Below are positions 13,321 to 38,343 of a stretch of 64,000 nt of DNA, one piece after another; position 1 is the first letter of the stretch, and the number at the start of each line of letters is the position of its first letter. The notes beneath the pieces are model-generated. The model saw only the letters and a list, made by a program, of their open reading frames with translations. It was not told where the DNA came from and did not search any database. The stretch is from Thermoplasmatota archaeon (GTDB lineage Archaea > Thermoplasmatota > Thermoplasmata > Lutacidiplasmatales > JAMCUS01), in assembly GCA_023379385.1 (NCBI GenBank), contig JAMCUS010000032.1, positions 14,243-78,242 on the forward strand, read 5' to 3'. Position numbers and translations under genes: made by a program.

Positions 13321-13351
13321 TTATTAAAATCTAATAGGGGTATCATTTCAA

Positions 13352-20963: not shown

Positions 20964-20976
20964 AATTCAACACCTC

Positions 20977-22146: not shown

Positions 22147-22148
22147 CT

Positions 22149-24002: not shown

Positions 24003-24899
24003 ATGGAAGTTGTATTTTTAGGAACGGGTGGTAGTTATCCCTCCAAAAAAAGAAATGTGCCTGCCATAGTGGTAAAGGGGTACGGAAGTGGGCTTATGCT
24101 GCTGGATTGTGGAGAGGGAACCCAGCGACAGATAATGAATGCTGGTCTGAGCTTTATGAAAATAAACAATATTTTTATTACACATCTGCACGGGGACCAT
24201 TATCTGGGACTTCAGGGTCTCCTTCAGACCATGGCATTAAATAATCGTACAAATGAACTTTCAATATATGGCCCGGAAGGGATTGAATATATTGGAAATT
24301 TTATTATGAAGACAGGTTCCTGGAACCCTGGATACAAGGTATCATTTAATACTATAAAAAAAGATTTCAATAATGATTTTGGAAATCTTATCGTAAGTGT
24401 AGAACATGGAACGCATCTTATTACAGATTTTGCGTATAAAATAAAAGAGATGGATAGAAGAGGGAGTTTCAATAAAAAAATAACAGAACAACTTAATATA
24501 AAAGGCAAAGATTTCTCTGTTCTGGAAAGGAATGGTTTTATAGTAAAAAATAACAGAAAAATATATTTAAATGAGGTTACAGGTGAAATTAAAAAAGGAA
24601 AATCAATTGTATACACTGGAGATACAGCACCCTCTGACAAAATTGCTGAATTTTCTAAAAATGTTAATCTGCTTATTCATGATTCAACTGTAACATCAGA
24701 CCTTGAAGGTAAGGCCAATCAGTATGGTCATAGCAGTTCAGCACAGGCTGCTATGATTGCAAAAGCTGGCAATGTTGATAAACTTGTACTGACACACATA
24801 AGCCCCAGATATGAAGATACAGAACATATGCTTCAGGAAGCTAAAAACATCTTTCCAGAAAGTTATATTGCAGAGGATTTCTGGAGACTGAAGGTTTAG
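24003..24899 (+). CDS. rnz: Ribonuclease Z (tRNA 3' endonuclease, metallo-beta-lactamase fold)
   Basis: HxHxDH motif ITHLHGDHYLGLQGLLQTM; 298 aa. Confidence 0.8.
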   Translation: MEVVFLGTGGSYPSKKRNVPAIVVKGYGSGLMLLDCGEGTQRQIMNAGLSFMKINNIFITHLHGDHYLGLQGLLQTMALNNRTNELSIYGPEGIEYIGNFIMKTGSWNPGYKVSFNTIKKDFNNDFGNLIVSVEHGTHLITDFAYKIKEMDRRGSFNKKITEQLNIKGKDFSVLERNGFIVKNNRKIYLNEVTGEIKKGKSIVYTGDTAPSDKIAEFSKNVNLLIHDSTVTSDLEGKANQYGHSSSAQAAMIAKAGNVDKLVLTHISPRYEDTEHMLQEAKNIFPESYIAEDFWRLKV

Positions 24900-25190
24900 G
24901 GAATAATAATAGTTATAGTTTAATTAAAGATAGTTACCATTACAATAAATAGGTTACTTACATTAAATTTAACTCTGTGTACTGGAAGACATCTTTCATA
25001 AGATAAGGGATGAAAGCGAGTAAAAAGTTTTTATAACGATATAGATGAGCACAACAATATATAAATAGTATAATATGCAAATGGGAGCGATGAAGCAGGA
25101 AGCCATACCAGTGTAAGGGCCGGGGTAGTTCACTATAAACTTTGAAATTTCCACTGTAAATGGTGTCTACACTAACTTTTTTAATCAGAA

Positions 25191-25628
25191 TTGTCATTAC
25201 ATGATATTATGGATAATAAAAACAGAGATATCATCAAAACCAATAAAATCAATAAAAAAAAGATAAAGGTTGTTGTAAAAAAACCATTTATAAGCACCAA
25301 TAAATTTAATCTAACGTCTGCTTTAGTTTTCTTTTTTTCTGTTATAATAGTGTATATAATAACAGCTGATAAACCAGTTGCGTTGATAGTATCCATATTT
25401 GTAACAGCTATATTTTATATTTACTTAATAAAAAAACAGATGAAAAGCGTGAGGGTTATCGTTAATGGAGAGTCAGATGCGTTTAATAAAGAGATTTCTC
25501 AATTGGCAACACTCTACATACGAAATAAAATTGAAAAAGAATTATTTCTGTTAAAATACAGTGACGAAAGAAGAGATATTGCGGAATATGTTGTTATGGT
25601 AATCAATGAGGTCAATACGTTTTTGTAA
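25191..25628 (+). CDS. Small hypothetical membrane protein
   Basis: 145 aa; basic N-terminus followed by 2 TM helices; no motif. Confidence 0.35.
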   Translation: MSLHDIMDNKNRDIIKTNKINKKKIKVVVKKPFISTNKFNLTSALVFFFSVIIVYIITADKPVALIVSIFVTAIFYIYLIKKQMKSVRVIVNGESDAFNKEISQLATLYIRNKIEKELFLLKYSDERRDIAEYVVMVINEVNTFL

Positions 25629-25680
25629 TAATTCAACATATTATAAAAAACATGCATTGAAATCGTGGTCAAACATATCA

Positions 25681-26460
25681 TCATTTTTGGTTGATTATGA
25701 CAACCACACTGACGTCATCATCTCCTTCCTTTTCAATAACTGAGGAAATAAGTACCTTGCATAATACCTCAGGTAAATCATCTTTTTTAAGTATTGCCTC
25801 AATTTCATCATTGGTCAGTACATCATGCAATCCATCTGTACAAAAAAGGATTTTAGATGAATCCTCTAACTTTATATTATAGTGTGTTATTTTCTCCAGT
25901 TTATCATTTCCTATATAATTCGTTAATAAAACATGTGCTGGATGCTTTCTCTCATCGCTTACTAATATTTCTCCGCTTTCTACCAGTTCATGAGCTTTTG
26001 TCTGATCCACGGTAATCTGTTTAAAACCAGTACTGCTGAGATAGTATATTCTAGAATCCCCTACATGAGCAATATGCATAACATCGTCTACAATGAACCC
26101 CATCGTAACTGTTGCACCCATACCGGTATATTCTGCTCTTTTATTGGCTAATTCTAATATTTTAGCATTGGCTAAGTTTATACCTCTTTCCAATAATTCA
26201 TAAATAGATCCTTTCTCAATATCCATTGCATGTAATTGTAATAACGACGGTGCATACCTGCTAACGGTAGAACTGGCAACTTCACCTGCGTTATGTCCAC
26301 CCATACCGTCAGATATTATGGCAAGAAGCCATTCATTGGTACCTTTATAGTTAATATAAGATCCTTTCTGGACCTGTATAGCATCCTCATTATGTAGTCT
26401 GGCAGCACCTTTCTTGCTTAAAATTGCGTATTGATACATATTTTCACATACTCTGCTCAA
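25681..26460 (-). CDS. PP2C-family Ser/Thr protein phosphatase
   Basis: PP2C motifs SDGMGGHNAGEVAS, AHVGDSRIY, TDGL and C-terminal DDVSVVV. Confidence 0.85.
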   Translation of the reverse strand: MSRVCENMYQYAILSKKGAARLHNEDAIQVQKGSYINYKGTNEWLLAIISDGMGGHNAGEVASSTVSRYAPSLLQLHAMDIEKGSIYELLERGINLANAKILELANKRAEYTGMGATVTMGFIVDDVMHIAHVGDSRIYYLSSTGFKQITVDQTKAHELVESGEILVSDERKHPAHVLLTNYIGNDKLEKITHYNIKLEDSSKILFCTDGLHDVLTNDEIEAILKKDDLPEVLCKVLISSVIEKEGDDDVSVVVIINQK

Positions 26461-26506
26461 TTACACTTCAACTATCAATGATGTATAGATGCTGCCTTCT
26501 TACACG

Positions 26507-27166
26507 TCATACGGTTTTGTTCAGATCCTTTTCAACAAACTCCTTTATTGTTTTGTATGTACTTACCATTGTAAATTCAGGTATTGAAGATGCAAGTATT
26601 GATATGATCTTTTCTTTCATCTCTCTCTTCTCAGTCTCCATATCCGTTAGCTGTGTATACATGTCTACTAAATTTTTGGGAATATCACCAGGTTTGAGCA
26701 GTGTCTTTTTCATCTCCTCCGGCCTGGACTTCAATGCAGCCATTACAACCGATTTAACCTCAAATCTGTTCAGATTCTCAAAGAATATGTGTATTACTTC
26801 ATAAAACCTGAGATCAATCCATAAATCCGTTAATTCAGATATCTTGTTATTCATTTGTAGTTTGGTAGATGCTATTTCAAGTTCACCTGCCTGGCTCTTT
26901 CCCATCTCCAGTCTTGGTATCTCTTCGTATCTCAATATGTAGATGTCAGTACGGCATTTCACAAGCTCTTTCTCAATATCACTTATCATTATGTCAGAGA
27001 AGCTTTTGTTCATTTTCTTCTTGAAAAATTTATCATACGTTAACCACAACAACCCGAAAACAGTGGTTATTGGAACTCCAGGTATAATGTTTGCAAATTT
27101 GAATACGTTTGATATACTGGACCCTGCATTCATTGCAAAGTCTGTATCCAGATCTTCTATATCCAT
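26507..27166 (-). CDS. Hypothetical protein with one N-terminal TM helix
   Basis: 219 aa; 10-nt overlap with the upstream 649-aa gene; no recognisable domain. Confidence 0.5.
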   Translation of the reverse strand: MDIEDLDTDFAMNAGSSISNVFKFANIIPGVPITTVFGLLWLTYDKFFKKKMNKSFSDIMISDIEKELVKCRTDIYILRYEEIPRLEMGKSQAGELEIASTKLQMNNKISELTDLWIDLRFYEVIHIFFENLNRFEVKSVVMAALKSRPEEMKKTLLKPGDIPKNLVDMYTQLTDMETEKREMKEKIISILASSIPEFTMVSTYKTIKEFVEKDLNKTV

Positions 27167-29106
27167 TTTACCACCTCCACCATGTCTTTTCTCTGCATTA
27201 CCTTGCCCAGTTCAGGACTGCTGTATACAATTTTTCCCTCTCCGCTCCTTACCAGAATATCAAATACTCTATCGTAGGTTCTTTCGTTGTGGCCTTCTGT
27301 ATGATATTTCGCTTTAAGCATTCTTGTGGATATCTGCCCATCTACAAATCTGTACATCATCTCTTTTGCATCTCTTACAATGCGGTAGAGCCTCTCATCA
27401 TATGCTTCAGTATGGAAAAATGGTAAATAACGTTCTGCATGTGGATCCCTGCTGTTATAGATCAATTTACCCTTTGTTGCCAGATAAGGTACGCAAAATG
27501 GATTTGAATGATAGTTATTTATGTACTGTATTGCCTCCTGGTCAAATCCTGTTGGTGAGTTGATACAGATCACACAGGTGTATTTATCTGCTGAGGCAGA
27601 TCTATATGCCTGGTCTATCATCCCAGTGACAGAATTGAATTCTGTGGGTATGTTGTCATATCCCCTGCTTTTAAGTAGGTCCAGATGCGAGTTGTTTACA
27701 CCCACTAACACCAGCTTGTTAGTTCTCCATGATTTAACAGTGCCTCTAATTATTCTATTCTGGGGCAACCCTTCATAGGAGGATGTATTATTCGCTGTTG
27801 ATACATCTGCAATCTCTATTGACGAGGTGATTCCTATTTTAATCTGTTTCTCTTCATTATCTGCATAATAAAAATACTCTTTCGCTCTCTCCATGTTATG
27901 CTTCAGTGATAGAATGAACTCATCTTCCAGCATCTTCGCCTCCTCTCTCTTCACGGCAGTGCCCTCTCTTAACCCATGCAGAAGATTCTCCTTTTCTTCT
28001 TGACTCTTTCTGATCTCATCATTCATTAATTTTAGATCCTCTTCTCTTCTTAACTCTTCTTCCTTAAGTCTGGCACTGAGCATGGATACCTCCTCCTCCA
28101 TTGCTATTCTCTGTCTTTCCTTCTCCTCCCATTCCTTCTGAAGCATGCTTTTCACCATCTCATTGTTTGCATTCTCTTCCGCTATTCTGTTCTTCTCTTT
28201 TTCCAGTTCATCGTACCTCTTTTTCTGTTCTTCCAGCTCATTCAGAGTATTCTTCAGAGATTCCATGTAATCATTGCTCATTTTAGAAAGCCCTTCTCTG
28301 AACTTATCAACGTTTTCTGTGAGGGAGGCATTATATCTGTCTCGTTCCTGTCTTAGCTCTTCATATCGCTTCTCCAGCTCCTGTGTACGTTCACCGATGA
28401 TACTCTCTATCTCCTCCTGTATATCATCACCGTCATCATCCAGTTGATTTATCTCATCCCATGCATTGGTCAGTTCCACAAGGCTTTTCCCAAGGTTGCT
28501 CTTCATGTAGTCAAGCACTATTGAATCCATCTTTTTTGTGATGGTATTTATCATACCCTCAAAATATTTATTGGGAATACTCTGCATGAACTTATTGAAA
28601 AATTCCTCGGGTTTCCATATGTATTCCTTTATGAAGTTAATCTGTGACACATTACTCGTGGCTTCATTGAACATTCTTAGTAAGGTTTCTCTATCCAGAT
28701 GAGAAATGTTCCAGAACCACTCTATTTTTGTGTACAGTTCATACAGCTCTTTTTCATCAACAGTCTGGTCACTTTCGTCGTCAAGGTGATATCTGCTCCT
28801 TACTGAATCACTGAAAATATATTCATCATCGTCCTCCTGGTCGTTAGAAGTTGTGTTCAATTTTTTGCTGTATTCCGCTACATCCAGAAGGAAATAGGCT
28901 GCAAACAGATCATCTTCCAGTTCATGTCTGCGATCATAGTCGTGAATGCTATCAACATATGCGTTGTACACTTCTTCGTTGTTCTTTATATTGCTGTAAA
29001 GGTTTTCAAGGTTCTCAAGAGATTCACGTTCCAGTGTACCCAGTCTACCTCTCAATATTCTATTCACAATATTCACCACTTCAGGGTTATTTCCATTTAC
29101 CACCAT
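27157..29106 (-). CDS. Large coiled-coil protein with acidic N-terminal region and C-terminal globular domain of unknown function
   Basis: 649 aa; residues ~230-400 are E/K/R-rich heptads; the C-terminal ~250 aa are globular and Cys/His-containing. Confidence 0.6.
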   Translation of the reverse strand: MVVNGNNPEVVNIVNRILRGRLGTLERESLENLENLYSNIKNNEEVYNAYVDSIHDYDRRHELEDDLFAAYFLLDVAEYSKKLNTTSNDQEDDDEYIFSDSVRSRYHLDDESDQTVDEKELYELYTKIEWFWNISHLDRETLLRMFNEATSNVSQINFIKEYIWKPEEFFNKFMQSIPNKYFEGMINTITKKMDSIVLDYMKSNLGKSLVELTNAWDEINQLDDDGDDIQEEIESIIGERTQELEKRYEELRQERDRYNASLTENVDKFREGLSKMSNDYMESLKNTLNELEEQKKRYDELEKEKNRIAEENANNEMVKSMLQKEWEEKERQRIAMEEEVSMLSARLKEEELRREEDLKLMNDEIRKSQEEKENLLHGLREGTAVKREEAKMLEDEFILSLKHNMERAKEYFYYADNEEKQIKIGITSSIEIADVSTANNTSSYEGLPQNRIIRGTVKSWRTNKLVLVGVNNSHLDLLKSRGYDNIPTEFNSVTGMIDQAYRSASADKYTCVICINSPTGFDQEAIQYINNYHSNPFCVPYLATKGKLIYNSRDPHAERYLPFFHTEAYDERLYRIVRDAKEMMYRFVDGQISTRMLKAKYHTEGHNERTYDRVFDILVRSGEGKIVYSSPELGKVMQRKDMVEVVKWI

Positions 29107-29231
29107 ATCATCACCTCTTCATCTATTTTTACCGTCCATTTTTTCACATTATAAACATTTTAATATAATTTCTTTCTTGCAGGGGTCTGAATTCCTTCTG
29201 TAAATTCAGAATAGTCATCTATTTCCCACAT

Positions 29232-30620
29232 CTACTGCCCCTCCCTGCTGAATTTATACTGCCACACCCTTCTCCCTTCATTGATAACTGCAACACCTGC
29301 CTCTACTGTATAGTTGTCTGATTCTGTGCTGAACCTCCATTTTTTTCTTCCTTTTTCAGATCTGTCTACCGTTGCTAGACAGCCAAGTACTGTATCAAGA
29401 TACTGCCACTCTGTTGTCCTTTCAGGATCGTAGCTCGCTTCACCTGTGTGGAGAAGACTGATAAGTTCGTTCATTCCTCTCTTTGTAGATTCATCACCCA
29501 TTACCAGTGGATTTATCACAATTTCTCTTCTGCCACCACTCTCCCTAACTGTAGTCATGAGCTCCAGCATATCTTTTGATCCCATTACTGACTCAAGAAA
29601 AACTCTGAACTTATCCCCAAGTGCTCTGTTTCTGCAGAGTTCCTGATCTATATATGGTTTTTTTATTCCTGTCTTTTTCATATCCTCTACTATCTTTTTT
29701 GCCCAGACTGCATCAGCAATAATTGGAAAGCTGATCAACTCTTTGTTACGTATGCATCTTTTTATGTATTCTATCCATTCCTCTTTACTGCCATTCTCTA
29801 TAAGCTCTGAAATACTCCTGCCAGTCATACTGCCGTTGAATTCCAGATTTACAGGTTCCGTGTGAGCTTCCACAACCGGTTTATTGTTTATATCTTTTAT
29901 GGAGACAGGTGCATGCACATCTCTCTGCGTATGCTTCTCTGCAACGCTATCTGGTAATGGCTCCAATAAATCTTCTGTTGCCGTTCCAGACAGTAATTCC
30001 CAGTCGGTAACCAGACCGTCTATAAATATACCTTTTACATTCTCCAGACGTGGATCTGCCCATGTTATGATATTATTGCACAGGTCCACCAGTATGATCC
30101 ATGTATCCGAGTATGATGGTGCGTTATGTGTTACCCACCCTGCTGTGGATATTCCACAGATGATCTTTACTTTATATTCCTTCATGTTATGCATCTCTAT
30201 TGCCTGATTCTGCAATAAGGATGAATCAATTTTAGTCGGAGATTTTGTTATACTAGCCAGAAACTCATAGTCATGAAAAAATAATAAATTAATAAGGCAT
30301 TTATTTTTGGCCAGAATGCCAGAACCCATCAGCTCTATACCCATTCTTTTACTGTATGGAAAATTCTTTCTGAAGTCGTTAAAGTTTACCTTACCCTGTA
30401 TTTTTTGCCAGTGTTTGACACCGTCTGTTTCTCCTATGGACTCAAATGTGTATGTGTTTATAATCTTGCTGAATAATTCCTTTACCCTGTGCTTGTTTTT
30501 ATCCGTCAGCATCAGATAGATTCCACTTCCGTTCAATCTATCCTTTAAATTTTCATAGTATTCATCTTCCAGTTTCATTGCTGTTCTTGCTGTCACCCAC
30601 TCATCCATCTGTTTCACCAC
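29232..30620 (-). CDS. Hypothetical protein (462 aa), island-specific
   Basis: No confident motif; it contains a C/H/D cluster (KIICGISTAGWVTHN...ILVDLCNN) that could be a thiol-peptidase-like fold. Confidence 0.5.
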   Translation of the reverse strand: MVKQMDEWVTARTAMKLEDEYYENLKDRLNGSGIYLMLTDKNKHRVKELFSKIINTYTFESIGETDGVKHWQKIQGKVNFNDFRKNFPYSKRMGIELMGSGILAKNKCLINLLFFHDYEFLASITKSPTKIDSSLLQNQAIEMHNMKEYKVKIICGISTAGWVTHNAPSYSDTWIILVDLCNNIITWADPRLENVKGIFIDGLVTDWELLSGTATEDLLEPLPDSVAEKHTQRDVHAPVSIKDINNKPVVEAHTEPVNLEFNGSMTGRSISELIENGSKEEWIEYIKRCIRNKELISFPIIADAVWAKKIVEDMKKTGIKKPYIDQELCRNRALGDKFRVFLESVMGSKDMLELMTTVRESGGRREIVINPLVMGDESTKRGMNELISLLHTGEASYDPERTTEWQYLDTVLGCLATVDRSEKGRKKWRFSTESDNYTVEAGVAVINEGRRVWQYKFSREGQ

Positions 30621-30643
30621 AATCTTTTGTTTTGATTTTATTT

Positions 30644-33600
30644 TTATTTATTCAATTTTTCAAAGAAGCTCTTTATATTCTCTTTCATTCTGTCATTTAA
30701 CTCCTGCCCACGTTCCATGCATTCCTCCAGATCTCCTTTTATTTGTTCATATAACTCCTTCAACTTCCTGTCACCCTCCATTCTCTCTTTCAGGATCTCC
30801 CTTATATCCTCGTCCTCAAGTACCTCACTGATCTCTTTTACTACGTTCTTCTCTTCATACTCCTCTATCAGCTTCCTCGTCTCGTTTATCACTATGCCCT
30901 GTTTCCTGTCCGCTCTCCTGTATGCCCTCAGCTGTTCTACATCCTTGCCTAAATTATAGAGATCATTCAGTCTCTCTGCTATCTCTATCAGCCCTATTCT
31001 CTTTTCCTGCTCTCCCTTTACACAATCCATTATTAGCTCTTTTATCTCCGGATTATCTTTCAGCTCTTCACTGCTCTCCAGATCTTTTCCTATGTCTTCC
31101 TTCTCGGGCTCTATTCCTGTATATGCCCAGTACATTATTCTACCCAGTATACATGTCATTGTCTTCTCGTTCGGAAATTTGCCACCTTTCAATAGCTCCG
31201 GTGCTGCCCACTGCGGCGTGTATACCAGTTCATCACTTCTCGATATTGATCCCATTCTGAAGCAACCTCCCCAGTCTATCAGCTTTACCTTATTGCCTCC
31301 CACTATTATTATATGCTCCGGCTTCAGATCTGTATTCACTACTTTATGCATTTTCCACGCATACAGTAATGGATCTATGCAGTCGTAGAACACTCCCGCA
31401 AGTACCTCTTCCCTCGGTTTCTTTTTTACATATTCCCTGAGGTTATCTCCTTCTATCCACTCCATCTCTATATGCGTATTGTCGTAGTCATATACCTGCG
31501 CTATTCCTGAATGTTTCAGCTTCTTGTGCATCTCCGCCTCTTTCAGGAATCGCCTGCCCACGTCTCCTGCTGTAATAGGGTATTTCACTACCACTACCTG
31601 TTCCTCTATACTACCATCCTTTCTTCTTCTCTTCGCTTTCCACACCACACTCTGCCTGCTCTCGTGTACTGGTTTATCTCCTACAAATTGATAACTCTCA
31701 CCCAGTATATCGTGAAAGTACTGCCCTGGCGTTTTTTCATATTGTACAGGAACATCCATTTGCAGGGCTCCTGTCTCCACCTTCTCTGTTTGGCTTTTAT
31801 CTTCCTCTATGTACAGACTTTCCTTATCCCTGTACTCTTTTTCAAAACTTCTTCCCAGTGCATCCCTGTATGTCGCTTTAGCCTCCATTCTTATCTCGTT
31901 ACCTATCGTACCTAAAAACCGGATCTCTGTCTCTCTCACCTCTCCTGCCTTCAGATCTCCTACCTCTATTACTCTATTGTCCATTTTCGCTTCCCCTTCC
32001 GGTACTTTCAGTTCCACTCTGAGCTCTTTGATCTCCGATTTCCCATTGTTCGTTATCTGCATTTTCAGTTTTACTCTTCTGTTTCTTACGTACATGTTTC
32101 CTATTGAGATCGCTATGTCAGGTATAGTTTCATTAATTGATTTATCCAGTTTAGCTCCTGTCGCTCTCAGCTCCTCTAAATTACCCTCTTTTACAGATTT
32201 CTTTACACTCTTCTCATATTCCTCAATCATCTCTCCCAGTTTCTTCAGTTTCACCAACTTATCACTAACTGGATAATATTCTAGTATCACCGCTGCTCTC
32301 TGCCGGCATATCTCTATTCTTTTCTTGAGTTCGCTCCGGTCTACAACATTCTCCTCTACACCCTCTGTTAACTTCTTGATATTGTTGTATACAGCTCCGG
32401 TATCCCTGTACAGATCCTCTGCCTCCCTGTACTTTTCCAATTCCACCAGTCGCTCTCCTTCCTCAAGTTTCATATTAGCAGATTCATATTCCTCTTTCAG
32501 ATCTCTCTTTATACTCTCCAGCACCTCTATTGCAATTTCACCCACGGTTTTCTCTTCGTATCCCTTTGCTGTGGATTCCAATACCATAATCTTTCTGCTG
32601 TCATTTCTCAATTTAGCAATCTTTGATATTGCCACTGCATCAAGCACTCCTCTGGATCCACCACTAGCAAGATATCCCAGAGATCTGATTGCATTGCCTC
32701 TAACAGTTGCATCTTCATCAGATAAACACTGGATCAGTGCTGCAACACCTTTATCCTCTACAATATACGCACTCCATCCATCTTTGGCAATATTGCCAAG
32801 TACCCATGCCGCGTTCTGGCGTACATATACATCTTTATCTGATAGATTACGGATCATGGGAGCAATTCCATTCTCCTCTACTATATCCTTGCTCCATCCA
32901 TCATTGGCAATGTTGCCAAGTGCCCATGTTGCAACACCTCTTACATATCCATCGTTATCAGAAAGGCTCTGAATCAGTGAGGGAATGCCTCTTTCCTTAA
33001 CGATCTCCTTGCTCCATCCACCCTTAGCAATGTTGCCAAGTGCCCAGATCGCTTTGCCACGTATCTCAGCATCGCTATCTGATATGCTGTATATGAGTGG
33101 TGCAATTCCCTTCTCCTCTACAACCTCTTTATTCCATCCATCCTTCGTTATGAATCCCAGTGTATCCGTCATTTTACGCCTGACTTCTGCATCACTGTCA
33201 TATAGAACATGTACCAGTGGTGCGATTCCCTTCTCCTCTACTATATGTTTGCTCATTCCACTTTTGGCAATGTTACCAAGTGCCCATGCCGCGTTCTGGC
33301 GTACATATACAGAATTATCAGAAAGGCTGCGTAGCAATGGAGATATACCTTTCTCCTCTACTATATCCTTGCTCCATCCATCCTTGACAATGTTGCCAAG
33401 TGCCCATGTTGCAACACCTCTCACATATCCGTCGTTATCAGAAAGGCTATACACTAGCGGGGCAATGCCCTTCTCCTTAACGATCTCCTTGCTCCATCCA
33501 CCCTTAGCAATGTTGCCAAGTGTCCAGATCGCTTTGCCACGTATCTCAGCATCACTATTGGACAGGCAGTGTACCAGTGGTGCAATTCCCTTCTCCTCTA

Positions 33601-33724
33601 CTATATCCTTTGCTCCTCCGTCTTTGGCAATAAAGCCCAGGGCATTTACAGAAGTTTTCTGTATTGTAATATCCTCGCTTCTCAGATTATTTATCCAATT
33701 CGAAATCTCCCATCTGTTTACCAT
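30644..33724 (-). CDS. Armadillo-repeat protein with beta-sandwich middle domain and Hanks-type Ser/Thr protein kinase domain
   Basis: N-terminus: 8 x 40-aa repeats with the ARM consensus (IAPLVxxLSDxDxxVRxxAAWALGNIAKxGWSKxIVEEKG). Kinase motifs: VVVVK (VAIK), catalytic loop VNTDLKPEH, DWG (DFG) and TPQWAAPE. C-terminal coiled coil. Confidence 0.8.
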   Translation of the reverse strand: MVNRWEISNWINNLRSEDITIQKTSVNALGFIAKDGGAKDIVEEKGIAPLVHCLSNSDAEIRGKAIWTLGNIAKGGWSKEIVKEKGIAPLVYSLSDNDGYVRGVATWALGNIVKDGWSKDIVEEKGISPLLRSLSDNSVYVRQNAAWALGNIAKSGMSKHIVEEKGIAPLVHVLYDSDAEVRRKMTDTLGFITKDGWNKEVVEEKGIAPLIYSISDSDAEIRGKAIWALGNIAKGGWSKEIVKERGIPSLIQSLSDNDGYVRGVATWALGNIANDGWSKDIVEENGIAPMIRNLSDKDVYVRQNAAWVLGNIAKDGWSAYIVEDKGVAALIQCLSDEDATVRGNAIRSLGYLASGGSRGVLDAVAISKIAKLRNDSRKIMVLESTAKGYEEKTVGEIAIEVLESIKRDLKEEYESANMKLEEGERLVELEKYREAEDLYRDTGAVYNNIKKLTEGVEENVVDRSELKKRIEICRQRAAVILEYYPVSDKLVKLKKLGEMIEEYEKSVKKSVKEGNLEELRATGAKLDKSINETIPDIAISIGNMYVRNRRVKLKMQITNNGKSEIKELRVELKVPEGEAKMDNRVIEVGDLKAGEVRETEIRFLGTIGNEIRMEAKATYRDALGRSFEKEYRDKESLYIEEDKSQTEKVETGALQMDVPVQYEKTPGQYFHDILGESYQFVGDKPVHESRQSVVWKAKRRRKDGSIEEQVVVVKYPITAGDVGRRFLKEAEMHKKLKHSGIAQVYDYDNTHIEMEWIEGDNLREYVKKKPREEVLAGVFYDCIDPLLYAWKMHKVVNTDLKPEHIIIVGGNKVKLIDWGGCFRMGSISRSDELVYTPQWAAPELLKGGKFPNEKTMTCILGRIMYWAYTGIEPEKEDIGKDLESSEELKDNPEIKELIMDCVKGEQEKRIGLIEIAERLNDLYNLGKDVEQLRAYRRADRKQGIVINETRKLIEEYEEKNVVKEISEVLEDEDIREILKERMEGDRKLKELYEQIKGDLEECMERGQELNDRMKENIKSFFEKLNK

Positions 33725-33820
33725 ATATCATCACCACTTTCGTCGTTTACGCCATATTCACTTTTATTGAAATCCATAACTATCACACTGCATCTCTCAT
33801 TCTATCAGTAAATTAATCTG

Positions 33821-34732
33821 TCAATTCTCTACAGCCCTCAGATATTCAATTAATGCTCTGTATTCATTGTATGAATACTCAATATCATTGCCGACCATAC
33901 CCTTTCGCTCTTTCAAGGCTGGCACTACGTTTCCTTCCTTATCAAATTCTGTAAGAATGCTGCTATAAAAATATGTGACAGGTGTGTAATTAACGGTACC
34001 ATACCACCTTTTTAGCTCTGCTAACGTTTCTGGAAAAAATTTAGTCATGAGGTCTTCGCAATATTTTTTTCTCTTTTCCACCTCTGTTAGCAGTGGAAAT
34101 TGTTCCGAGATGGAATTCGACCTGAATAATTCCCTGTTAATATTATCAAACTTGGTGAAGATCATAATTAAAAAAATCTGTTTTGCATTGCCCGTAAACC
34201 ATGCAGAATTCCCTATTGCGTTTACAAATTTTGCAGTAGCCCTATCGTTGCCGTATCCACCGGTTACTTCACCTGCCGATAATTTACTGCTATCTATCAA
34301 TATGATCACTCCCCTGGACGAAAGCAATTTTCTGATTGTTCCAGCATCTGCACTTGATTGTGTCATCCCCCTTATTGATTCTACCAGTTCAGTCAGCCCA
34401 TGGAAGTATACGTTTAAATTGATGTTCGTATATGTATTATCCTTTTTAAAAAATTTTGAAAGGCGAATACCACTGCTACTCATGTATCTGAATGTAACGG
34501 AGAATTCCGTAAATGTTGATGATGATTTCTCTGGCCATTCCCCGGACCTGAGCCTGCTGTATATGCTGGTAATCTCGTTCATTATGAGAGGAGATGCATA
34601 AAATTTGAACAGGTTTTTATTCCTATTTTCATTGGAGTACCGTATCTGGGAGGAATACAAAAGTCCAATGAATGTTTCTTTCCCAGATCCATCATCACCT
34701 ACTACTGCCACATCCATAACATCCAACATCAT
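33821..34732 (-). CDS. P-loop GTPase, Ras-like/TRAFAC class, atypical (paralogue 2)
   Basis: G1 VVGDDGSGKETF, Walker-B-like IILIDSS, and G4-like FTKFD (TKxD instead of NKxD). Confidence 0.65.
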   Translation of the reverse strand: MMLDVMDVAVVGDDGSGKETFIGLLYSSQIRYSNENRNKNLFKFYASPLIMNEITSIYSRLRSGEWPEKSSSTFTEFSVTFRYMSSSGIRLSKFFKKDNTYTNINLNVYFHGLTELVESIRGMTQSSADAGTIRKLLSSRGVIILIDSSKLSAGEVTGGYGNDRATAKFVNAIGNSAWFTGNAKQIFLIMIFTKFDNINRELFRSNSISEQFPLLTEVEKRKKYCEDLMTKFFPETLAELKRWYGTVNYTPVTYFYSSILTEFDKEGNVVPALKERKGMVGNDIEYSYNEYRALIEYLRAVEN

Positions 34733-35715
34733 TTATTTGGCTTTATTTCTTCGTCTTCTTTGATTTCATCAGGCATTTCATCAGCGATTTTCTTGAAATG
34801 GGTGATAAATCCCTCAAATTCTGAGTATGAGTAATCAAGTTCATGTCCCACGCCTCCTGGAACTACGCTCAGTGCCGGAGATGGAAATCCATCGTCTCCG
34901 AATACAGTATTCACATGGGTAAAAAAGTAGGCTGTATTATCAAAGCTCACGTTCATCAGGCTACCCCCCTTCAATAGAGCAAGAGTTTGTGGGAAGAAGT
35001 TGGTCATGATCTTCTCTGCAAATTCAGTTCTTCTTTTACCATCGCGGAGTGGTGGCGGGTATGGCTCCTTCAGATTCATTTTAATTAGCACATTTCTATC
35101 CACCTTGTCAAATTTAGTAAAAACAATAACGGGATAAATCTTCCTTTCTGCAGGGTCATCCTTCTTGGAATTGTACTGCGCCACTAGAGAGACAAGAGTG
35201 GCCATTGTTCCATCATAGTTAAGCATATCATGGTGCTCCTTGCTTCTCGCCTGAGTTGTGATCCTGCTGGCATCAATGAGGAATACAAGCGTTCTCGACT
35301 CCAGCACCTTTTTTGCAGCGTCTGTAAAATTCTCGGTCTGTCTTCCATCAGGTGTTCTAATCATGTCTGTAATATCCTCTCCAGCTACATCATATATTCC
35401 AAATCCTATAATAGCAAAAGGATTCATCCAATTCTTTTTCTGTACCCATCTGGGTATCAATGTGGCCATTGTTTTCTTGTAACCAAATAGAAATGATAAT
35501 GTTGTCGTCTGCCCTTTTAAGGTCGCATCAGGCCATCTACCCTCCACTAGTTCGGTATAGGTTCTACTTATAATGTTCAACGCAGATGGTGCTGCATAAA
35601 ACCTAAAAATGTCTCTGTTTGATGGCTCGTCAGTATACTTAACCTGTGCTGCATATAACAACCCTATAAATGTTGTTTTTCCAGCTGCTCTATCTCCCAA
35701 AACTGCTGTGGGCAT
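34729..35715 (-). CDS. P-loop GTPase, Ras-like/TRAFAC class, atypical (paralogue 1)
   Basis: G1 VLGDRAAGKTTF, G3 YDVAGED, G4 FTKFDKVD; 4-nt overlap with the downstream paralogue. Confidence 0.65.
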   Translation of the reverse strand: MPTAVLGDRAAGKTTFIGLLYAAQVKYTDEPSNRDIFRFYAAPSALNIISRTYTELVEGRWPDATLKGQTTTLSFLFGYKKTMATLIPRWVQKKNWMNPFAIIGFGIYDVAGEDITDMIRTPDGRQTENFTDAAKKVLESRTLVFLIDASRITTQARSKEHHDMLNYDGTMATLVSLVAQYNSKKDDPAERKIYPVIVFTKFDKVDRNVLIKMNLKEPYPPPLRDGKRRTEFAEKIMTNFFPQTLALLKGGSLMNVSFDNTAYFFTHVNTVFGDDGFPSPALSVVPGGVGHELDYSYSEFEGFITHFKKIADEMPDEIKEDEEIKPNK

Positions 35716-35814
35716 ATTTCATAACCTCCTATTACTTAGTAATAGCATTGTTTAATACATAAGGTTGTATAAAATAGTTTGCAAAACCACTTTTTGTTTG
35801 TTATAATGTAAATC

Positions 35815-36600
35815 TCATTTTGATCCAAAAATATCATCTATAGTTTTATCAATGGTTTCTTTGCTGGAAGTCGGTGTATCCTCTTTTTTAACAGGTACCA
35901 TCACCCATTCTCCTGGCTTTATATCTGGTTTTATACGTGAAATGATCAAATTAAAGATTCTGGTAGCATCTGTATATGGAACATCTGAAAAAACAGATAT
36001 TGATGTCAATCTGAGTTTAATATCCAATAACATGGATAATAAATACGCCATCTTCAATCGTTCGTCCTCACTGCTATTAGGCACATGCAAAAAGATCTTC
36101 ACTGCACTGTTTTCCCTGTAGTAGGCTATAAGCTTCTCTACTACACCTCTGTTCAGATATTTTTGGAGCTCCTTGATATATTCATCAATATTATTTTTCT
36201 CTCTATGAATAGAAAAAAGTGGAAGATTTCCCACTGCCTCTTTGTGTTCTGCTTCAAATTTTTCCATATCTCTATCCAGTTCTTCGTAAGTAATAGCACC
36301 CTCCAATAGAAATTGTTTGGGAACAATTACTGTATGATTCTCAACAGCACCTCTCTTATATTCATCCAGCCCCTTTACAATTCTAGAAAAAAGTATTGCA
36401 TTAGAGTTGGAAAGAATTAAATGAGGTATATGCATATATTTTAAATCACTCTGGCTTATAGGAAGAAAAAAACCCTGATAAGGTCTCACATAACCCTCTG
36501 CAATTCCATTCTTGGAATATGCTTTCATTTTGTAACCCTTATAATTTCCATAAATGAATTGCTCACATTCAATCACTTCATCGTTTTTTTCATCTACCAT
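35815..36600 (-). CDS. Hypothetical protein (261 aa), first gene of the island operon
   Basis: No motif recognised; its start abuts the right end of the IS607 element. Confidence 0.5.
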   Translation of the reverse strand: MVDEKNDEVIECEQFIYGNYKGYKMKAYSKNGIAEGYVRPYQGFFLPISQSDLKYMHIPHLILSNSNAILFSRIVKGLDEYKRGAVENHTVIVPKQFLLEGAITYEELDRDMEKFEAEHKEAVGNLPLFSIHREKNNIDEYIKELQKYLNRGVVEKLIAYYRENSAVKIFLHVPNSSEDERLKMAYLLSMLLDIKLRLTSISVFSDVPYTDATRIFNLIISRIKPDIKPGEWVMVPVKKEDTPTSSKETIDKTIDDIFGSK

Positions 36601-36674: not shown

Positions 36675-37784
36675 TTATGGACATTCATTTACTGAACCTC
36701 CATTTAACTTGCTTGATAGCGAACGGAGACTGTATCCTCCCGCCAATCCTAAGAATTCTAAATTCTTTGCACCTACATGGTCTACATTATCTACATGGCT
36801 ACGTCGCAAACATAAAAATTTAATCCCCTTACGATTTCTCCTGTCTATGTCGCCACATTCAGGGCATCTCTGCGATGTTTTCCAGGGATCTTTGCGATAT
36901 ACGGATATCCCAAGCTCTTCACACATCTGCTCTAACCGAATGCCAACCCTGGCATAATGCCAGAAAGACAGAAGTCTATTTACCCCACGTGAAAACCTTC
37001 CACGTTTATTCATCGTGACATTTTTTAAATCTTCTATTACCATTGCCTTTACTCCCTCTAAATTCAGCTTTTTTATGTACCTGTTCTCCTCTGTTGTTAT
37101 ATACTGGTGATATGATTTCCTGTGCTTATCTACCGATAACATCTCTGCTTTCATTTCGCTTCCTAGGTTCTGTCCATCTGATGTAAACAGCATTGAATTT
37201 ACTCCTCTATCTATTCCTATTATTTTCCCTTTTGCACGTTTTTCAGGTCTTTCTTTTTCCAATATTAAATCAATAAATAGGCCATTCTCTTTATTCCAAC
37301 CTAATCTTATTGACTTCCCTATCTCCCAACCGTCCTTAAGCAATTCATTTATTTGCTTATTCAGATTGAATAATATTACCACACCGGGAACGCCTGAACC
37401 GAATTTCACACACTTATCAAAAGAACCATCAAAACCATCTATTTTTGTGAATCTGCCATCTAAATTGGCTATTGTTTTATGGATTATGGGCATTCTTTTA
37501 TCTTTTTTTTCTAACTGTGATGATATGATTTCTTTGGACTGCTTCCCTATGCATTGTGATAACCTGGCTGTAATATTAAATTTAAGGGATATCCCATCTG
37601 TTACCTCCTCAGATAATAATCCACTGGAGAAATCCTGTGCAGACCACAACCTCTCTATTGTATAATTCACTGCCCTGTTATAAGTAACTAAAAACTCCTC
37701 AAGCTTATTGACCTTGTTTATATTTACCTCTTTCAGATATATGCGGGATGTCCTCTTCATTTTATTATTATCAGTCAGATTCAT
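36675..37784 (-). CDS. tnpB: TnpB (IS605/IS607 OrfB, RuvC-like RNA-guided nuclease family)
   Basis: RuvC-I IGIDRGVNSM, RuvC-II MVIEDLKNV, zinc finger CPECG...C, 369 aa. Confidence 0.85.
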   Translation of the reverse strand: MNLTDNNKMKRTSRIYLKEVNINKVNKLEEFLVTYNRAVNYTIERLWSAQDFSSGLLSEEVTDGISLKFNITARLSQCIGKQSKEIISSQLEKKDKRMPIIHKTIANLDGRFTKIDGFDGSFDKCVKFGSGVPGVVILFNLNKQINELLKDGWEIGKSIRLGWNKENGLFIDLILEKERPEKRAKGKIIGIDRGVNSMLFTSDGQNLGSEMKAEMLSVDKHRKSYHQYITTEENRYIKKLNLEGVKAMVIEDLKNVTMNKRGRFSRGVNRLLSFWHYARVGIRLEQMCEELGISVYRKDPWKTSQRCPECGDIDRRNRKGIKFLCLRRSHVDNVDHVGAKNLEFLGLAGGYSLRSLSSKLNGGSVNECP

Positions 37785-38343
37785 TTTTTATTACCTCTAC
37801 TATCTTATCTCTTTTCCTCTTGCCCTTCCTCAGCCCGTAATATCTTGCACACATTGATGTTACTATTGATATCATATCCTGCATCAGGTCGTTCTTATCA
37901 TTATCCGTTTCATTCACTACCTCTATATGCTTCCCCAGCTCATTGAATAATATGTTTATGTAGTTGAATCCAAATCTGGTAAGCCTATCTTTATGCTCAA
38001 CTATGAGTATATTATAATTCTTATCTATAAATAATTTATTCAATTGCTTACGATTATCATCAACTCCACTGCCTGTTTCTTTGACTATCTTATATATGGA
38101 ATAACCTTTAGCTATTGCATAATTTTCTAAACGTTGAGCCTGTGCATCCAGATTATTTTTATTCTCCGAACTGGAAACTCTTGCATAAATGCATACTTTA
38201 TCTGGGAATTTATTTTCAATTTCCTCATTCACAATGACTGTACCGGTTGGTAATTGAAATGCATCTATTTTACCATCTTTCCATAATCTCCATGCTGTTT
38301 TATAAGAAATACCCAATTTCTTAGCCCATGTTGATAATTTCAT
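37771..38343 (-). CDS. tnpA: IS607-type TnpA (MerR-like HTH + serine recombinase/resolvase)
   Basis: N-terminal HTH LGISYKTAWRLWKDGKI and the resolvase motif IYARVSSSENK with the nucleophilic Ser; 190 aa. Confidence 0.85.
   Translation of the reverse strand: MKLSTWAKKLGISYKTAWRLWKDGKIDAFQLPTGTVIVNEEIENKFPDKVCIYARVSSSENKNNLDAQAQRLENYAIAKGYSIYKIVKETGSGVDDNRKQLNKLFIDKNYNILIVEHKDRLTRFGFNYINILFNELGKHIEVVNETDNDKNDLMQDMISIVTSMCARYYGLRKGKRKRDKIVEVIKNESD

Follow-up and report, generated by a model that had tools for sequence, protein, structure and literature searches.

The question raised by this locus is what kind of system is encoded by eight minus-strand genes at positions 25681-36600 of the window, the 64,000-nt stretch of DNA from a Thermoplasmatota archaeon that was analysed. 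The first-pass annotation had read them as an IS-flanked, horizontally acquired island that combines two GTPases with a kinase and a phosphatase.

Layout and surroundings of the island

The eight open reading frames have the lengths and coordinates first listed for them. They and the neighbouring mobile elements are as follows.

25681-26460 (-), PP2C Ser/Thr phosphatase with all catalytic motifs
26507-27166 (-), 219-aa protein, marginally hydrophobic in one segment (residues 24-42)
27157-29106 (-), 649-aa protein, coiled coil in the centre (~200-420), C-terminal part globular
29232-30620 (-), 462-aa protein with a lineage-specific N-terminal part and a conserved C-terminal adaptor-like domain
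30644-33724 (-), 1026-aa ARM-kinase protein (Pfam Arm 4e-56, Pkinase 3.6e-19)
32400-33724 (-), ARM-repeat coding segment, hypervariable between co-occurring strains
33821-34732 (-), GTPase B, 303 aa, degenerate paralog of GTPase A
34729-35715 (-), GTPase A, 328 aa, DO-GTPase-type, motifs intact
35815-36600 (-), 261-aa protein that accompanies the GTPases in the core; two-lobed module of predicted longin plus DENN-core-like (TagF-like) type
36675-38343 (-), IS607-type element directly upstream, a neighbour outside the system
36675-37784 (-), TnpB of IS607 (Pfam Cas12f1-like_TNB 7.2e-12)
37771-38343 (-), serine recombinase of IS607 (Pfam Resolvase 1.4e-18)
38984-39724, DDE transposase on the 36.6-kb side of the island

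The close packing of the genes was confirmed throughout, including the overlaps of 4 nt at 34729-34732 (GTPase A and GTPase B genes) and 10 nt at 27157-27166 (649-aa and 219-aa genes) and the 99-nt gap after the first gene; the other spacers are 96 nt (between the GTPase B and ARM-kinase genes), 23, 125 and 46 nt. The island is one tightly packed operon-like unit.

The GC content of the island (0.38-0.43) is above the background of ~0.34, and the GC3 of the six central genes (0.39-0.44) exceeds the background of 0.292 ± 0.038. The GC3 of the end genes for PP2C and the 261-aa protein (0.28-0.29), however, is like the background, and the E/K/R richness said to set the island apart is 0.224 versus 0.169 ± 0.064, inside one S. 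D. of the background. The claim of flanking IS elements holds on one side only. The IS607-type element, found at the same position in all three contigs that reach far enough upstream (L164-L166), and the DDE transposase lie at the 36.6-kb side, whereas the 25-kb flank is free of IS elements and consists of housekeeping genes (tRNase Z, an HTH protein, HMG-CoA synthase and thiolase). An ncRNA-like repeat reported on the latter side was not recovered: there is no notable repeat there, and no Rfam family in the whole window. Horizontal acquisition of the island is plausible; the composition and the adjacent IS607 are compatible with it, but no empty site was found among the sampled strains, in every one of which the island is fixed at the same place.

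The GTPase pair and its conserved partner

The comparison set comprises 163 related loci, almost all from Thermoplasmata MAGs. The conserved core consists of GTPase A, its paralog GTPase B and the 261-aa protein, in several gene orders. In keeping with the first-pass reading, the eight-gene order is unconserved in the relatives, where only the genes of the GTPases and the 261-aa protein recur, together with the C-terminal domain of the 462-aa protein in a closer clade.

GTPase A is, judging from its motifs (G1 GDRAAGKTT, Walker B YDVAGED, G4 TKFD), the catalytically competent partner of the pair, and all motifs are intact at 163 of 164 loci. It matches Pfam DO-GTPase2 marginally above threshold (28.4 versus 27 bits), and most of the GTPase homologs bear precomputed DO-GTPase1/2 matches. 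The nearest structural neighbours of GTPase A are YcjX and Rag/Arf/SRβ/Gα, and some of these closest structures belong to GTPases with known longin or Roadblock partners.

GTPase B is ~30% identical to GTPase A and has kept the G4 motif, TKFD being read in both paralogs as had been described. Its P-loop is GDDGSGKET, and its Walker B (YFHGLTE) has lost the aspartate. A second GTPase paralog is present at 126 of the 164 loci, and in essentially all of these copies the Walker B DxxG is gone. The Walker A motif (GxxxxGK[ST]) is intact in only 51 of the 126, the P-loop lysine being often lost (GSGLTT and GSGRTT are common variants), and G4 is retained in 119. The B copies also diverge much faster than the A copies. 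GTPase B is likely, from these motif states, a pseudo-GTPase. The two NTPases had rightly been called atypical, in that they are non-housekeeping GTPases; the degeneracy of the second had been missed.

The 261-aa protein, previously left without any assignment, is the most conserved partner of the GTPases (150 of 164 loci). Its AlphaFold model is confident and matches, by two methods, TagF, longin and DENN GTPase regulators; a longin lobe is followed by an alpha/beta lobe, and DENN modules align over both. The protein is predicted from this model to be a longin/DENN-like GTPase-regulator module, in which no d-DENN domain was identified. The arginine finger of longin-type GAPs is located in the longin domain (PMC12290439), and the invariant Arg83 in the longin beta4-beta5 hairpin of the 261-aa protein may be a candidate for such a finger. 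The Pfam GAP1 models (GAP1-N1/N2/M/C) do not recognise the protein, a targeted profile comparison with a genuine GAP1-N2 protein is negative (-1.9 bits), and hhalign gives E 0.18.

Variable modules around the core

The cargo that varies among the related loci comprises the kinase, PP2C and the 649-aa and 219-aa proteins. In the 1026-aa protein about eight ARM/HEAT repeats are followed by a linker and a beta-sandwich-like domain, after which come a divergent Hanks kinase and, at the C-terminus, a coiled coil, much as first described: the Pfam repeat matches fall in 7 stretches, Tandem Repeats Finder gives a 120-nt unit in 7.7 copies at 32710-33631, equivalent to about eight ARM repeats, and the match for the beta-sandwich is weak (NPCBM_assoc, 0.0023). 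Motif inspection of the kinase domain found VVVVK710, the E in EAEM729, DLKPEH799, DWG817 and APE841 and no GxGxxG loop. Because this glycine-rich loop is missing and His replaces the catalytic-loop Asn, kinase activity is uncertain. It is proposed that the 1026-aa protein is the sensor and signal-output component.

Variation between strains is concentrated in the ARM segment. In the variant haplotype (L179, L175) this segment is 69-84% identical to the window and has four repeats fewer, whereas the other ~8 kb are 99-100% identical. The segment also holds an internal copy at a 480-nt offset (82% identical). A role of the ARM repeats as a diversifying sensor is proposed.

The PP2C assignment is supported by Pfam (PP2C_2, 3.6e-11), by NCBIfam (Stp1/IreP, 3.5e-58, below the equivalog cut-off) and by the motifs RLHNED, DGMGG, GDSR, DGL and DDDVS; the protein has 259 aa from TTG and 252 aa as called in public assemblies. 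The same core is adjoined by vWA, kinase-FHA, PP2C and FHA genes at L012/L181 and by kinase, FHA and Metallophos genes at L006/L182. The kinases of these loci are non-orthologous to that of the window, and kinase, FHA and phosphatase genes have been recruited at least three separate times (window, L006/L182, L012/L181).

The 462-aa protein has no match in Pfam or PDB, and the Cys/His/Asp cluster attributed to it was not confirmed, Cys and His being scattered along the sequence. Its C-terminal domain (~170-200 aa, residues ~258-460, window 29241-29849) recurs in the closer clade, where it forms the C-terminus of proteins that differ from locus to locus. L001 has it on two proteins, one of ARM/HEAT type and one of 589 aa, and L005, L006, L007, L085 and L088 have it on proteins of 248-424 aa. 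Since the loci that bear it are restricted to the closer GTPase clade, the domain appears to belong with the core.

The 649-aa protein has no match in Pfam, PDB or PHROG and only weak matches of coiled-coil type to SMC, LmuB and ZorA. No homolog was found in the 163 related loci or in viral contigs, and the protein is identical across about 35 sample blocks; it is a lineage-specific candidate effector or scaffold. The 219-aa protein, also without a homolog in the 163 related loci, had been called membrane-anchored, which overstates a single marginal hydrophobic window (KD 1.63). It has a weak match to the PADLOC '2TM effector' (0.0024) and is a lineage-specific candidate membrane effector. No toxic effector (nuclease, peptidase or pore-former) is recognisable in the island, and no vWA/TerY, FNIII-repeat or GASH protein is encoded in the window.

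Interpretation and comparison with known systems

The island is best read, with somewhat better than even confidence, as a minimal variant, specific to Thermoplasmatota, of the NTP-dependent conflict or signalling systems named DO-GTPase ('double-GTPase'). This reading starts from what the locus shows: which genes are present and how they are conserved, the state of their motifs, the predicted folds and the confinement of hypervariability to one segment. The core would be a three-protein nucleotide switch made up of GTPase A, its paralog B and the 261-aa longin plus DENN-like protein. GTPase A, with a Rag/Arf/SRβ/Gα/YcjX-like fold and a Walker B DxxGE, would hydrolyse GTP, and GTPase B would probably pair with it as a non-hydrolysing partner. 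By analogy with longin and DENN regulators, the 261-aa protein may dock on the pair and set its GTP/GDP state by a putative GAP or GEF action. In this genome the switch would be coupled to a Ser/Thr phosphorylation module. In the presumed order of events, a trigger would be bound by the strain-variable ARM repeats, the most likely one being a foreign or altered-self protein, this binding would control the kinase domain of the same protein, and PP2C would reset the signal, while the C-terminal domain of the 462-aa protein would tether the variable parts to the core. The likeliest outputs in such a conflict role would be the 649-aa coiled-coil and 219-aa hydrophobic proteins, through assembly or membrane action.

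The same core could instead be a housekeeping cell-biological GTPase module of Thermoplasmata, a group with several wall-less cultured members, and serve in membrane dynamics, polarity or nutrient signalling. Its analogues would be MglA/MglB or Rag-Ragulator-FLCN, and the kinase and PP2C would be ordinary signalling inputs to it. The Rag/Arf/SRβ-like GTPase A and the longin/DENN-like fold of its partner would suit this role, and in the 39%-identity clade many MAGs have the core with the same genes on its flanks, a conserved synteny that is more suggestive of a stable cellular module than of a mobile defence island. The lack of a toxin-type effector and the fixation in all sampled strains point the same way; no viral, plasmid or phage copies of the system were found, and PADLOC gave nothing beyond generic kinase and PP2C matches. 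A housekeeping role is nevertheless considered rather unlikely, given the patchy spread (110 of 185,579 species genomes; 35 GTPase clusters among 5.8 billion proteins; 95 representatives of the 261-aa partner family among 1.84 billion proteins) and the 2-3 paralogous loci in some genomes. Even close relatives differ strongly in the neighbours of the core. These neighbours (FGE-sulfatase, HEAT and vWA proteins, kinase plus PP2C, Band7) agree with the repertoire published for the conflict systems, of which the first three are typical. The hypervariable ARM sensor, the atypical GC3 of the central genes and the adjacent IS607 also speak against it.

It is improbable that the GTPase triad (33821-36600) and a kinase/PP2C operon with its own accessory proteins (25681-33724) are two merely adjacent, uncoupled modules. 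Such a division would agree with the 96-nt spacer between them and with the occurrence of the core without the kinase, PP2C, 649-aa and 219-aa proteins in most loci; moreover, the ARM-kinase gene of the L179 haplotype is preceded by 260 nt unrelated to the GTPase B end of the window, so the triad and kinase halves may not always be linked. However, the eight genes lie on a single strand and either overlap or are separated by short gaps, and the C-terminal domain of the 462-aa protein is confined to loci of the closer GTPase clade. ARM/HEAT proteins recur beside the core, once fused to that domain, non-orthologous kinase, FHA and phosphatase genes stand beside it in at least two other lineages, and kinase plus PP2C is a described DO-GTPase theme (PMC7159879). 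That the island is a TerY-P-like triad, another named defence system or passenger cargo of IS607 is very improbable. A kinase and PP2C are present, the kinase domain matches the PADLOC models mad6 and PD-T4-6, and IS607 abuts the island, but those matches span the generic kinase domain only, with no other component, and a vWA/TerY protein is lacking in the window. The IS607 consists of resolvase and TnpB only and lies on one side, and among the called genes of L001, L002 and L180-L182, which carry the core, there is no transposase or resolvase.

The DO-GTPase systems (Kaur, Burroughs, Iyer & Aravind, eLife 2020, PMC7159879) are computational predictions, no experimental test being found in the searched literature. 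According to that source, these 'GTPase-centric' systems are defined by two paralogous GTPases whose Walker B carries a glutamate, occur in 'a few archaea', with several paralogous loci per genome, and include a kinase + PP2C + vWA theme (the GAP1-N2 theme); HEAT repeats are among the variable modules of related vWA-centred systems. The first-pass statement that neither the GTPase pair nor the repeats are part of described systems was therefore wrong, and DO-GTPase2 matches GTPase A. The island shares with them the pairing of paralogous TRAFAC-type GTPases, the glutamate in Walker B, a constant partner other than a GTPase encoded beside the pair, highly variable neighbours around the core (FGE-sulfatase, vWA, HEAT, kinase + PP2C) and several paralogous loci per genome, and the reuse of the 462-aa C-terminal domain parallels the adaptor-domain logic published there. 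In contrast, their defining third component is a three-domain GAP1 (851 aa in L002) and not a 261-aa protein, and the island is without an FNIII-repeat, GASH or vWA protein and its GTPases without zinc ribbons or TM segments. The systematic degeneracy of GTPase B and the longin/DENN-like partner are not mentioned in the searched main text of PMC7159879, and the kinase theme, there reported as actinobacteria-restricted, is here archaeal, with the kinase fused to ARM repeats.

TerY-P, which had been taken as the nearest logic, shares the kinase and PP2C pair in a putative stress or conflict operon. The triad, attributed to work of Anantharaman, Iyer and Aravind in 2012, reportedly consists of the vWA protein TerY, PP2C and a Ser/Thr kinase. 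It is not the closest analogue, because the window lacks a vWA/TerY protein, and TerY-P has no GTPases. The known partner of the stress GTPase YcjX is YcjF, a membrane protein, in place of a paralog and a longin-like protein. GTPase A is only 15% identical to YcjX (PDB 6nz4), with no Pfam YcjX match. ROCO/LRRK-type proteins combine repeats, a Roc GTPase and a kinase in one polypeptide, whereas the island components are separate genes with no COR domain and no specific sequence relationship to them. TagF, compared as a structural relative, belongs to the PpkA/PppA/Fha threonine-phosphorylation pathway of type VI secretion (e.g. PMC5995506); the island has no type VI secretion genes and an archaeal host, TagF has no known action with GTPases, and the 261-aa partner is ~10% identical to it, with no Pfam TagF match.

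The longin, Roadblock and DENN regulators compared are MglB-MglA, Ragulator and FLCN-FNIP with Rag GTPases, GATOR1, C9orf72-SMCR8 and the DENN Rab-GEFs. The likeness to them comes from predicted structure only, with no detectable sequence homology, and the GTPases of the island fall outside the Rag, Arf and MglA families by sequence. Nevertheless, the partner has predicted longin and alpha/beta lobes like these regulators and, like longin-type GAPs (PMC12290439), an invariant arginine in its longin lobe; GTPase A is structurally near Rag, Arf and SRβ, and the pair resembles Rag heterodimers in joining one active and one divergent GTPase.

Layout, composition, and flanks of the island

Eight minus-strand ORFs were found at the coordinates given in the first-pass annotation, with the gene spacing claimed there (overlaps of 4 and 10 nt; gaps of 99, 96, 23, 125, and 46 nt).

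Genes of the island (window positions, strand, product, basis of the assignment)
25681-26460, minus: PP2C, 259 aa (Pfam and NCBIfam)
26507-27166, minus: 219-aa protein with one hydrophobic segment (ORF)
27157-29106, minus: 649-aa coiled-coil protein (ORF)
29232-30620, minus: 462-aa protein (ORF)
30644-33724, minus: 1026-aa ARM-kinase (Pfam and NCBIfam)
33821-34732, minus: GTPase B, 303 aa (TKFD motif; weak Pfam match)
34729-35715, minus: GTPase A, 328 aa (Pfam PF19993)
35815-36600, minus: 261-aa partner (ORF)

The PP2C, the kinase, and the Arm/HEAT repeats (seven stretches) proposed earlier are borne out by Pfam and NCBIfam; the beta-sandwich proposed for the middle of the 1026-aa protein was matched in the claimed place, but weakly. 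Tandem Repeats Finder detects a 120-nt unit in 7.7 copies at 32710-33631. Two plus-strand ORFs within the ARM gene, 32325-32972 (215 aa) and 32985-33770 (261 aa), were discarded as antisense repeat artefacts, because their translations are of low complexity and rich in Ser, Leu, and Pro.

The bracketing by IS elements holds on the 36.6-kb side, where IS607 and a DDE transposase are located, but no IS was found on the other side. IS607 consists of overlapping genes for TnpB and a serine recombinase (Pfam: Resolvase, 1.4e-18; TnpB TNB domain, 7.2e-12). The DDE transposase beside it (38984-39724) is called in the MAG contig L164, and the same stretch in contig L165 has no called gene, which looks like IS polymorphism or decay at the strain level. 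The 25-kb flank carries housekeeping genes (tRNase Z, an HTH protein, HMG-CoA synthase, and thiolase). The ncRNA-like repeat that had been placed on this side is unsupported, because Rfam detects no family in the window as a whole and 24850-25700 contains no repeat of note. Between PP2C and tRNase Z lies a small plus-strand ORF (25191-25628; 145 aa if started at TTG, 139 aa as called in public records), which is called in all strain contigs, contains a hydrophobic run, and has no Pfam match and a weak PHROG match (0.005-0.009). Integration linked to a tRNA was considered and rejected, the sole tRNA of the window being ~18 kb past the 36.6-kb end of the island; mobility through viruses, plasmids, or phages was likewise rejected, as no island component was matched in the collections of these elements.

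The GC content of the island is raised (0.38-0.43 vs ~0.34). GC3 of the six central genes is 0.39-0.44, compared with 0.292 ± 0.038 in 38 background ORFs; both end genes have background-like GC3 (0.28-0.29). GC3 is the cleaner composition measure: the archaeal mevalonate-pathway genes for thiolase, HMG-CoA synthase, and an OB-fold (DUF35-type) protein (20547-23198) have a GC content of 0.41-0.42 with a normal GC3 of 0.31-0.33, and raw GC peaks alone therefore do not mark foreign DNA in this genome.

The core triad: two GTPases and a 261-aa partner

A genome scan gave 110 stretches encoding a GTPase relative, nearly all in Thermoplasmata MAGs, the best being 58% identical. Loci were taken from species-representative genomes (80) and metagenomes (80), without de-replication, and compared by tblastn, ORF clustering, and iterative HMM searches. 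The triad occurs in the order partner-A-B (the window and loci L004, L005, and L085), in the order A-B-partner (L001, L006, L007, and L088), and, in a clade at 39% identity, as A-partner-B or B-A-partner. Since the triad recurs, and related loci hardly ever include the kinase, the PP2C, or the 649-aa and 219-aa proteins, the core consists of the 261-aa protein with GTPases A and B, all other genes being variable. Neighbours in related loci include proteins with FGE-sulfatase domains, HEAT proteins, AAA proteins, a Zn-ribbon protein, a VIT-vWA protein, exosortase, a Band7-type protein, and fusions of the partner family to AAA+DUF835. In the 39%-identity clade, an opposite-strand ORF of 460-570 aa (cluster 5) is conserved directly after the core in ~85 loci, e.g., L056:12883-14547 and L104:11850-13250 (both minus); it has no Pfam match, could be a shadow ORF in these high-GC contigs, and was set aside as evidence. 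A weakly Band7-like ORF of 300 aa lies ahead of the core in the same clade. Two records labelled 'bacterium' (L049) and 'Deltaproteobacteria bacterium' (L078, a 2.2-kb contig) probably represent archaeal contigs that were binned wrongly, not an occurrence in bacteria.

GTPase A matches Pfam PF19993 ('Double-GTPase 2') marginally (1.6e-6; 28.4 bits against a cut-off of 27), and GTPase B does so weakly (0.008); most GTPase A homologs have precomputed PF19993 and/or PF19975 matches. Among 5.8 billion proteins, these homologs form just 35 clusters at 90% identity, and all the named ones are from Thermoplasmatota. The structure model of GTPase A is confident (pLDDT 82.4, pTM 0.85), and a profile search of PDB sequences returned only borderline Galpha matches.

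The motifs GDRAxGKTT, YDV[AS]GED, and [TS]KFD are kept in 163 of the 164 A-type sequences, the second of them including the Walker B glutamate (DxxGE). Two paralogs are present in 126 of the 164 loci, and in the window their genes overlap by 4 nt. In the 126 B-type copies, the Walker B DxxG is gone almost everywhere and Walker A (GxxxxGK[ST]) is intact in just 51, with GSGLTT and GSGRTT as frequent variants, while xKxD is retained in 119; the copy in the window reads GDDGSGKET, YFHGLTE, and TKFD. B copies also diverge much faster than A copies. To judge from these motif states, the two form a pair of an active GTPase and a pseudo-GTPase, which may heterodimerise. The paralog B of the window is 30-33% identical to A and B copies alike, which does not single out the other B copies as its orthologs.

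Homologs of the partner numbered three by word-indexed search and 56 with a profile built from locus-derived members, and an exhaustive HMM search of 1.84 billion representatives gave just 95 family members. The family is present in 150 of the 164 loci, mostly as a standalone protein of ~265 aa immediately adjoining a GTPase. Its invariant residues are G22, Y23, P47, S72, D79, R83, H89, R181, and W232, together with a block G-x-x-D-E-x-x-R-x-T-x-x-N-H-[TS].

An AlphaFold2 model from 55 sequences is confident (pLDDT 84.8, pTM 0.86). Its structure matches include an Asgard longin domain (8.6), the RagC Roadblock domain (7.8), the VAMP7 longin (7.6), DENND10 (7.5 over 183 residues), and DENND1A (6.9 over 181 residues), with NPRL2, FNIP2, FLCN, C9orf72, MglB, LAMTORs, and Mon1/Ccz1 lower in the list. 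Foldseek agrees independently (TagF, E 2.7e-5; DENND1A, 7.9e-4). The N-lobe (residues 9-118) has the longin order beta-beta-alpha-beta-beta-beta-alpha, and the C-lobe is an alpha/beta sandwich; the predicted fold is thus a longin followed by a DENN-type alpha/beta core. In the model, G22-Y23 fall in the beta1-beta2 loop and D79 and R83 in the beta4-beta5 hairpin. In the longin-type GAPs FLCN, NPRL2, and SMCR8, the arginine finger is located in the longin domain, beside a conserved pre-strand 2 loop motif (PMC12290439). By analogy, the invariant R83 in the longin lobe is a candidate arginine finger, and it is this residue that hints at a GEF or GAP action of the partner on the GTPase.

Cargo proteins, strain variation, and the proposed switch

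The kinase keeps the beta3 lysine context VVVVK, DLKPEH, DWG, and APE and has no glycine-rich loop; the PP2C has the full set of catalytic motifs. PADLOC matched no island component beyond these two generic enzymes. Searches of Pfam, NCBIfam, PADLOC, PHROGs, and PDB sequences revealed no sign of a vWA, peptidase, or nuclease in the 462-aa or the 649-aa protein. The 649-aa and 219-aa proteins match no family, and none of the related loci encodes a homolog of either. Relatives of the last ~170 residues of the 462-aa protein are confined to the closer clade (GTPase identity >50%), where they invariably form the C-terminus but sit on differing host proteins: in L001 an ARM/HEAT protein and one of 589 aa, and in L005, L006, L007, L085, and L088 proteins of 248-424 aa. 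This domain has no Pfam or PDB relative.

Candidatus Thermoplasmatota MAGs (e.g., GCA_021792665.1) match the window. Contigs with the upstream half repeat the order IS607, partner, A, B, and those with the downstream half repeat the 462-aa gene through PP2C to tRNase Z; both halves together come from ~35 sample blocks. Short-read assemblies mostly break within the ARM repeats. No empty site that would attest an acquisition of the island was found among the strain contigs, all of which carry it.

Two haplotypes of the ARM-kinase were found. Over window positions 24000 to ~32000, the variant (contigs L179, gene at 301-2910, and L175) shares 99-100% identity with the window. Identity drops to 69-84% in the ARM-coding part (window 32400-33724), which is shorter by four repeats (a protein of 869 vs 1026 aa); the parts encoding the beta-sandwich, the kinase, and the coiled coil show practically no difference. 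An internal copy at a 480-nt offset in the ARM region (82% identity) suggests a four-repeat duplication. Variability confined in this way to the ARM repeats is consistent with a module for recognition that is subject to recombination or to diversifying pressure. The stretch L179:1-260, which precedes the start of the ARM-kinase gene, is AT-rich, non-coding in appearance, and without a match in the window, and the contig ends there. A rearrangement may have affected the boundary with the GTPase half in this haplotype, and possibly the GTPase and kinase halves are not always linked.

Phospho-signalling recurs beside the core with non-orthologous parts. Locus L181 has the order vWA, kinase-FHA, PP2C, FHA, followed by a 282-aa ORF in the position of paralog B, GTPase A, and the partner; in L182 a membrane kinase, an FHA protein, and a Metallophos phosphatase surround the core. 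FHA proteins stand beside kinase and phosphatase genes at the core in two other lineages (L180/L181 and L182).

From the observed gene content, conservation, motif states, predicted folds, and hypervariability, a probable scheme may be drawn. A longin/DENN-like regulator would set a GTPase switch made up of A with the pseudo-GTPase B; in this genome the switch would be coupled to the ARM-repeat sensor kinase, whose signal PP2C would reset. The 462-aa protein would serve as adaptor, and the outputs would be the 649-aa and 219-aa proteins. Beyond these observations, we infer the complexes, the GAP or GEF action, the sequence of steps, and the involvement in conflict. The main alternative, a GTPase module serving the cell biology of the host, would agree with the conserved synteny in the distant (39%-identity) clade and with the failure to find toxin-type effectors; we regard it as unlikely. 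That the two halves are merely adjacent modules is less probable still, being weakened by the adaptor domain of the 462-aa protein, which sits in the second half, and by the repeated recruitment of kinases beside the core.

Relation to DO-GTPase and type VI systems

'GTPase-centric systems' were defined by Kaur, Burroughs, Iyer, and Aravind (eLife 2020; PMC7159879). In the sections of that paper drawn on here, DO-GTPases have a conserved Walker B glutamate and often occur as two paralogs (in 38% of systems); their partner GAP1 has three domains (N1 or N2, M, and C), and a GASH (N1 type) or FNIII-repeat protein (N2 type) and highly variable components are added. One GAP1-N2 theme (theme 3) further contains an active kinase, PP2C, and a standalone vWA protein. 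A few archaeal occurrences are reported, Cuniculiplasma being named, and these sections mention no longin, DENN, or Roadblock fold for GAP1. Essentially this one computational paper covers the systems in the searched literature, with no later experimental treatment and no fold assigned to the partner protein. Given this definition and the PF19993 match of GTPase A, the first-pass claim that the GTPase pair is outside described systems is incorrect.

The island resembles DO-GTPase systems in its family GTPase (PF19993), the DxxGE Walker B, the paralogous GTPase pair, and a constant core with components differing between related organisms. The C-terminal domain of the 462-aa protein likewise mirrors the adaptor domains described there as coupling variable modules to the core (PMC7159879). 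Unlike GAP1, however, the partner has just 261 aa and lacks the three domains. None of the eight island proteins has a Pfam match to GAP1-N/M/C or to an FNIII-repeat or GASH protein, and GAP1 domains are absent from all 10 long partner-family members tested, which are fusions to AAA/RuvB-WHD/DUF835, a HerA-type ATPase, or a DUF7862/FnIII-like region. GAP1-N2 is the sole Pfam family matched by more than one partner member (4 of 24; best E 0.013, sub-threshold). With hhalign, the GY, SR, and GRP..HT motifs of the partner family aligned with the N-terminus of a genuine GAP1-N2 protein of L002 at E 0.18; a targeted hmmsearch against a genuine GAP1-N2 protein was negative (-1.9 bits), and the exhaustive search of 1.84 billion representatives gave no bridge to GAP1 proteins. 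Therefore, three-domain GAP1 membership fails, and the partner is not filed as GAP1. On the L002 contig (264 kb, metagenomic), two systems lie ~4 kb apart (10001-19389). In the first, a GTPase of Thermoplasmata type precedes an 858-aa fusion of a partner-family domain with AAA, RuvB-type WHD, and DUF835; in the second, a canonical DO-GTPase (686 aa) precedes the GAP1-N2 protein (851 aa).

A remote homology of the partner to GAP1-N2 is nevertheless possible, and the 261-aa family may be a minimal GAP1-N. Taken jointly, and tentatively, the data might describe an unannotated Thermoplasmatota-wide, eukaryote-like switch, i.e., a Rag/Arf-like active/pseudo-GTPase heterodimer with a longin + DENN-type regulator that is perhaps a minimal GAP1-N. 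If so, DENN-like GTPase regulation would exist in prokaryotes well outside Asgard archaea; and were the minimal GAP1-N assignment correct, every DO-GTPase conflict system, and perhaps also the checkpoint that TagF forms in type VI secretion, would operate by a regulator of longin/DENN type that is coupled to Thr phosphorylation.

DO-GTPase systems are already known, purely as predictions, and few of the conflict systems predicted in prokaryotes are understood so poorly. The archaeal branch is a stripped-down version with a core of ~900 residues. As far as the searched libraries go, four features are new: this minimal archaeal architecture, the systematic presence of a putative pseudo-GTPase, the fold predicted for the partner (longin/DENN, TagF-like), and the 170-aa C-terminal domain; the 261-aa family and this domain are unannotated and could enter domain and defence-system databases. 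Three proposals are testable: that the second GTPase is a pseudo-enzyme, that the partner is of longin/DENN type with a candidate arginine finger, and that the ARM-repeat kinase is a strain-variable sensor.

Among described systems, TerY-P, to which a likeness was drawn in the earlier annotation, is not the closest analogue, since no window protein has a vWA match. Of theme 3 of GAP1-N2, a full-motif PP2C and a kinase with the catalytic Asp, DWG, and APE but without a G-loop are encoded in the window, and a vWA protein is not; the complete trio is found in the related archaeal locus L181. Compared with type VI secretion, the host is archaeal, no T6SS-family Pfam match was obtained among the scanned window proteins, and the partner has no Pfam match to TagF even at E ≤ 5. 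The type VI threonine-phosphorylation pathway, on the other hand, has the same guild as L180/L181 and L182 (kinase, PP2C, FHA, and a TagF-like protein), and should the assigned fold prove right, one scheme would connect TagF-like proteins with GTPase switching and Ser/Thr phosphorylation.
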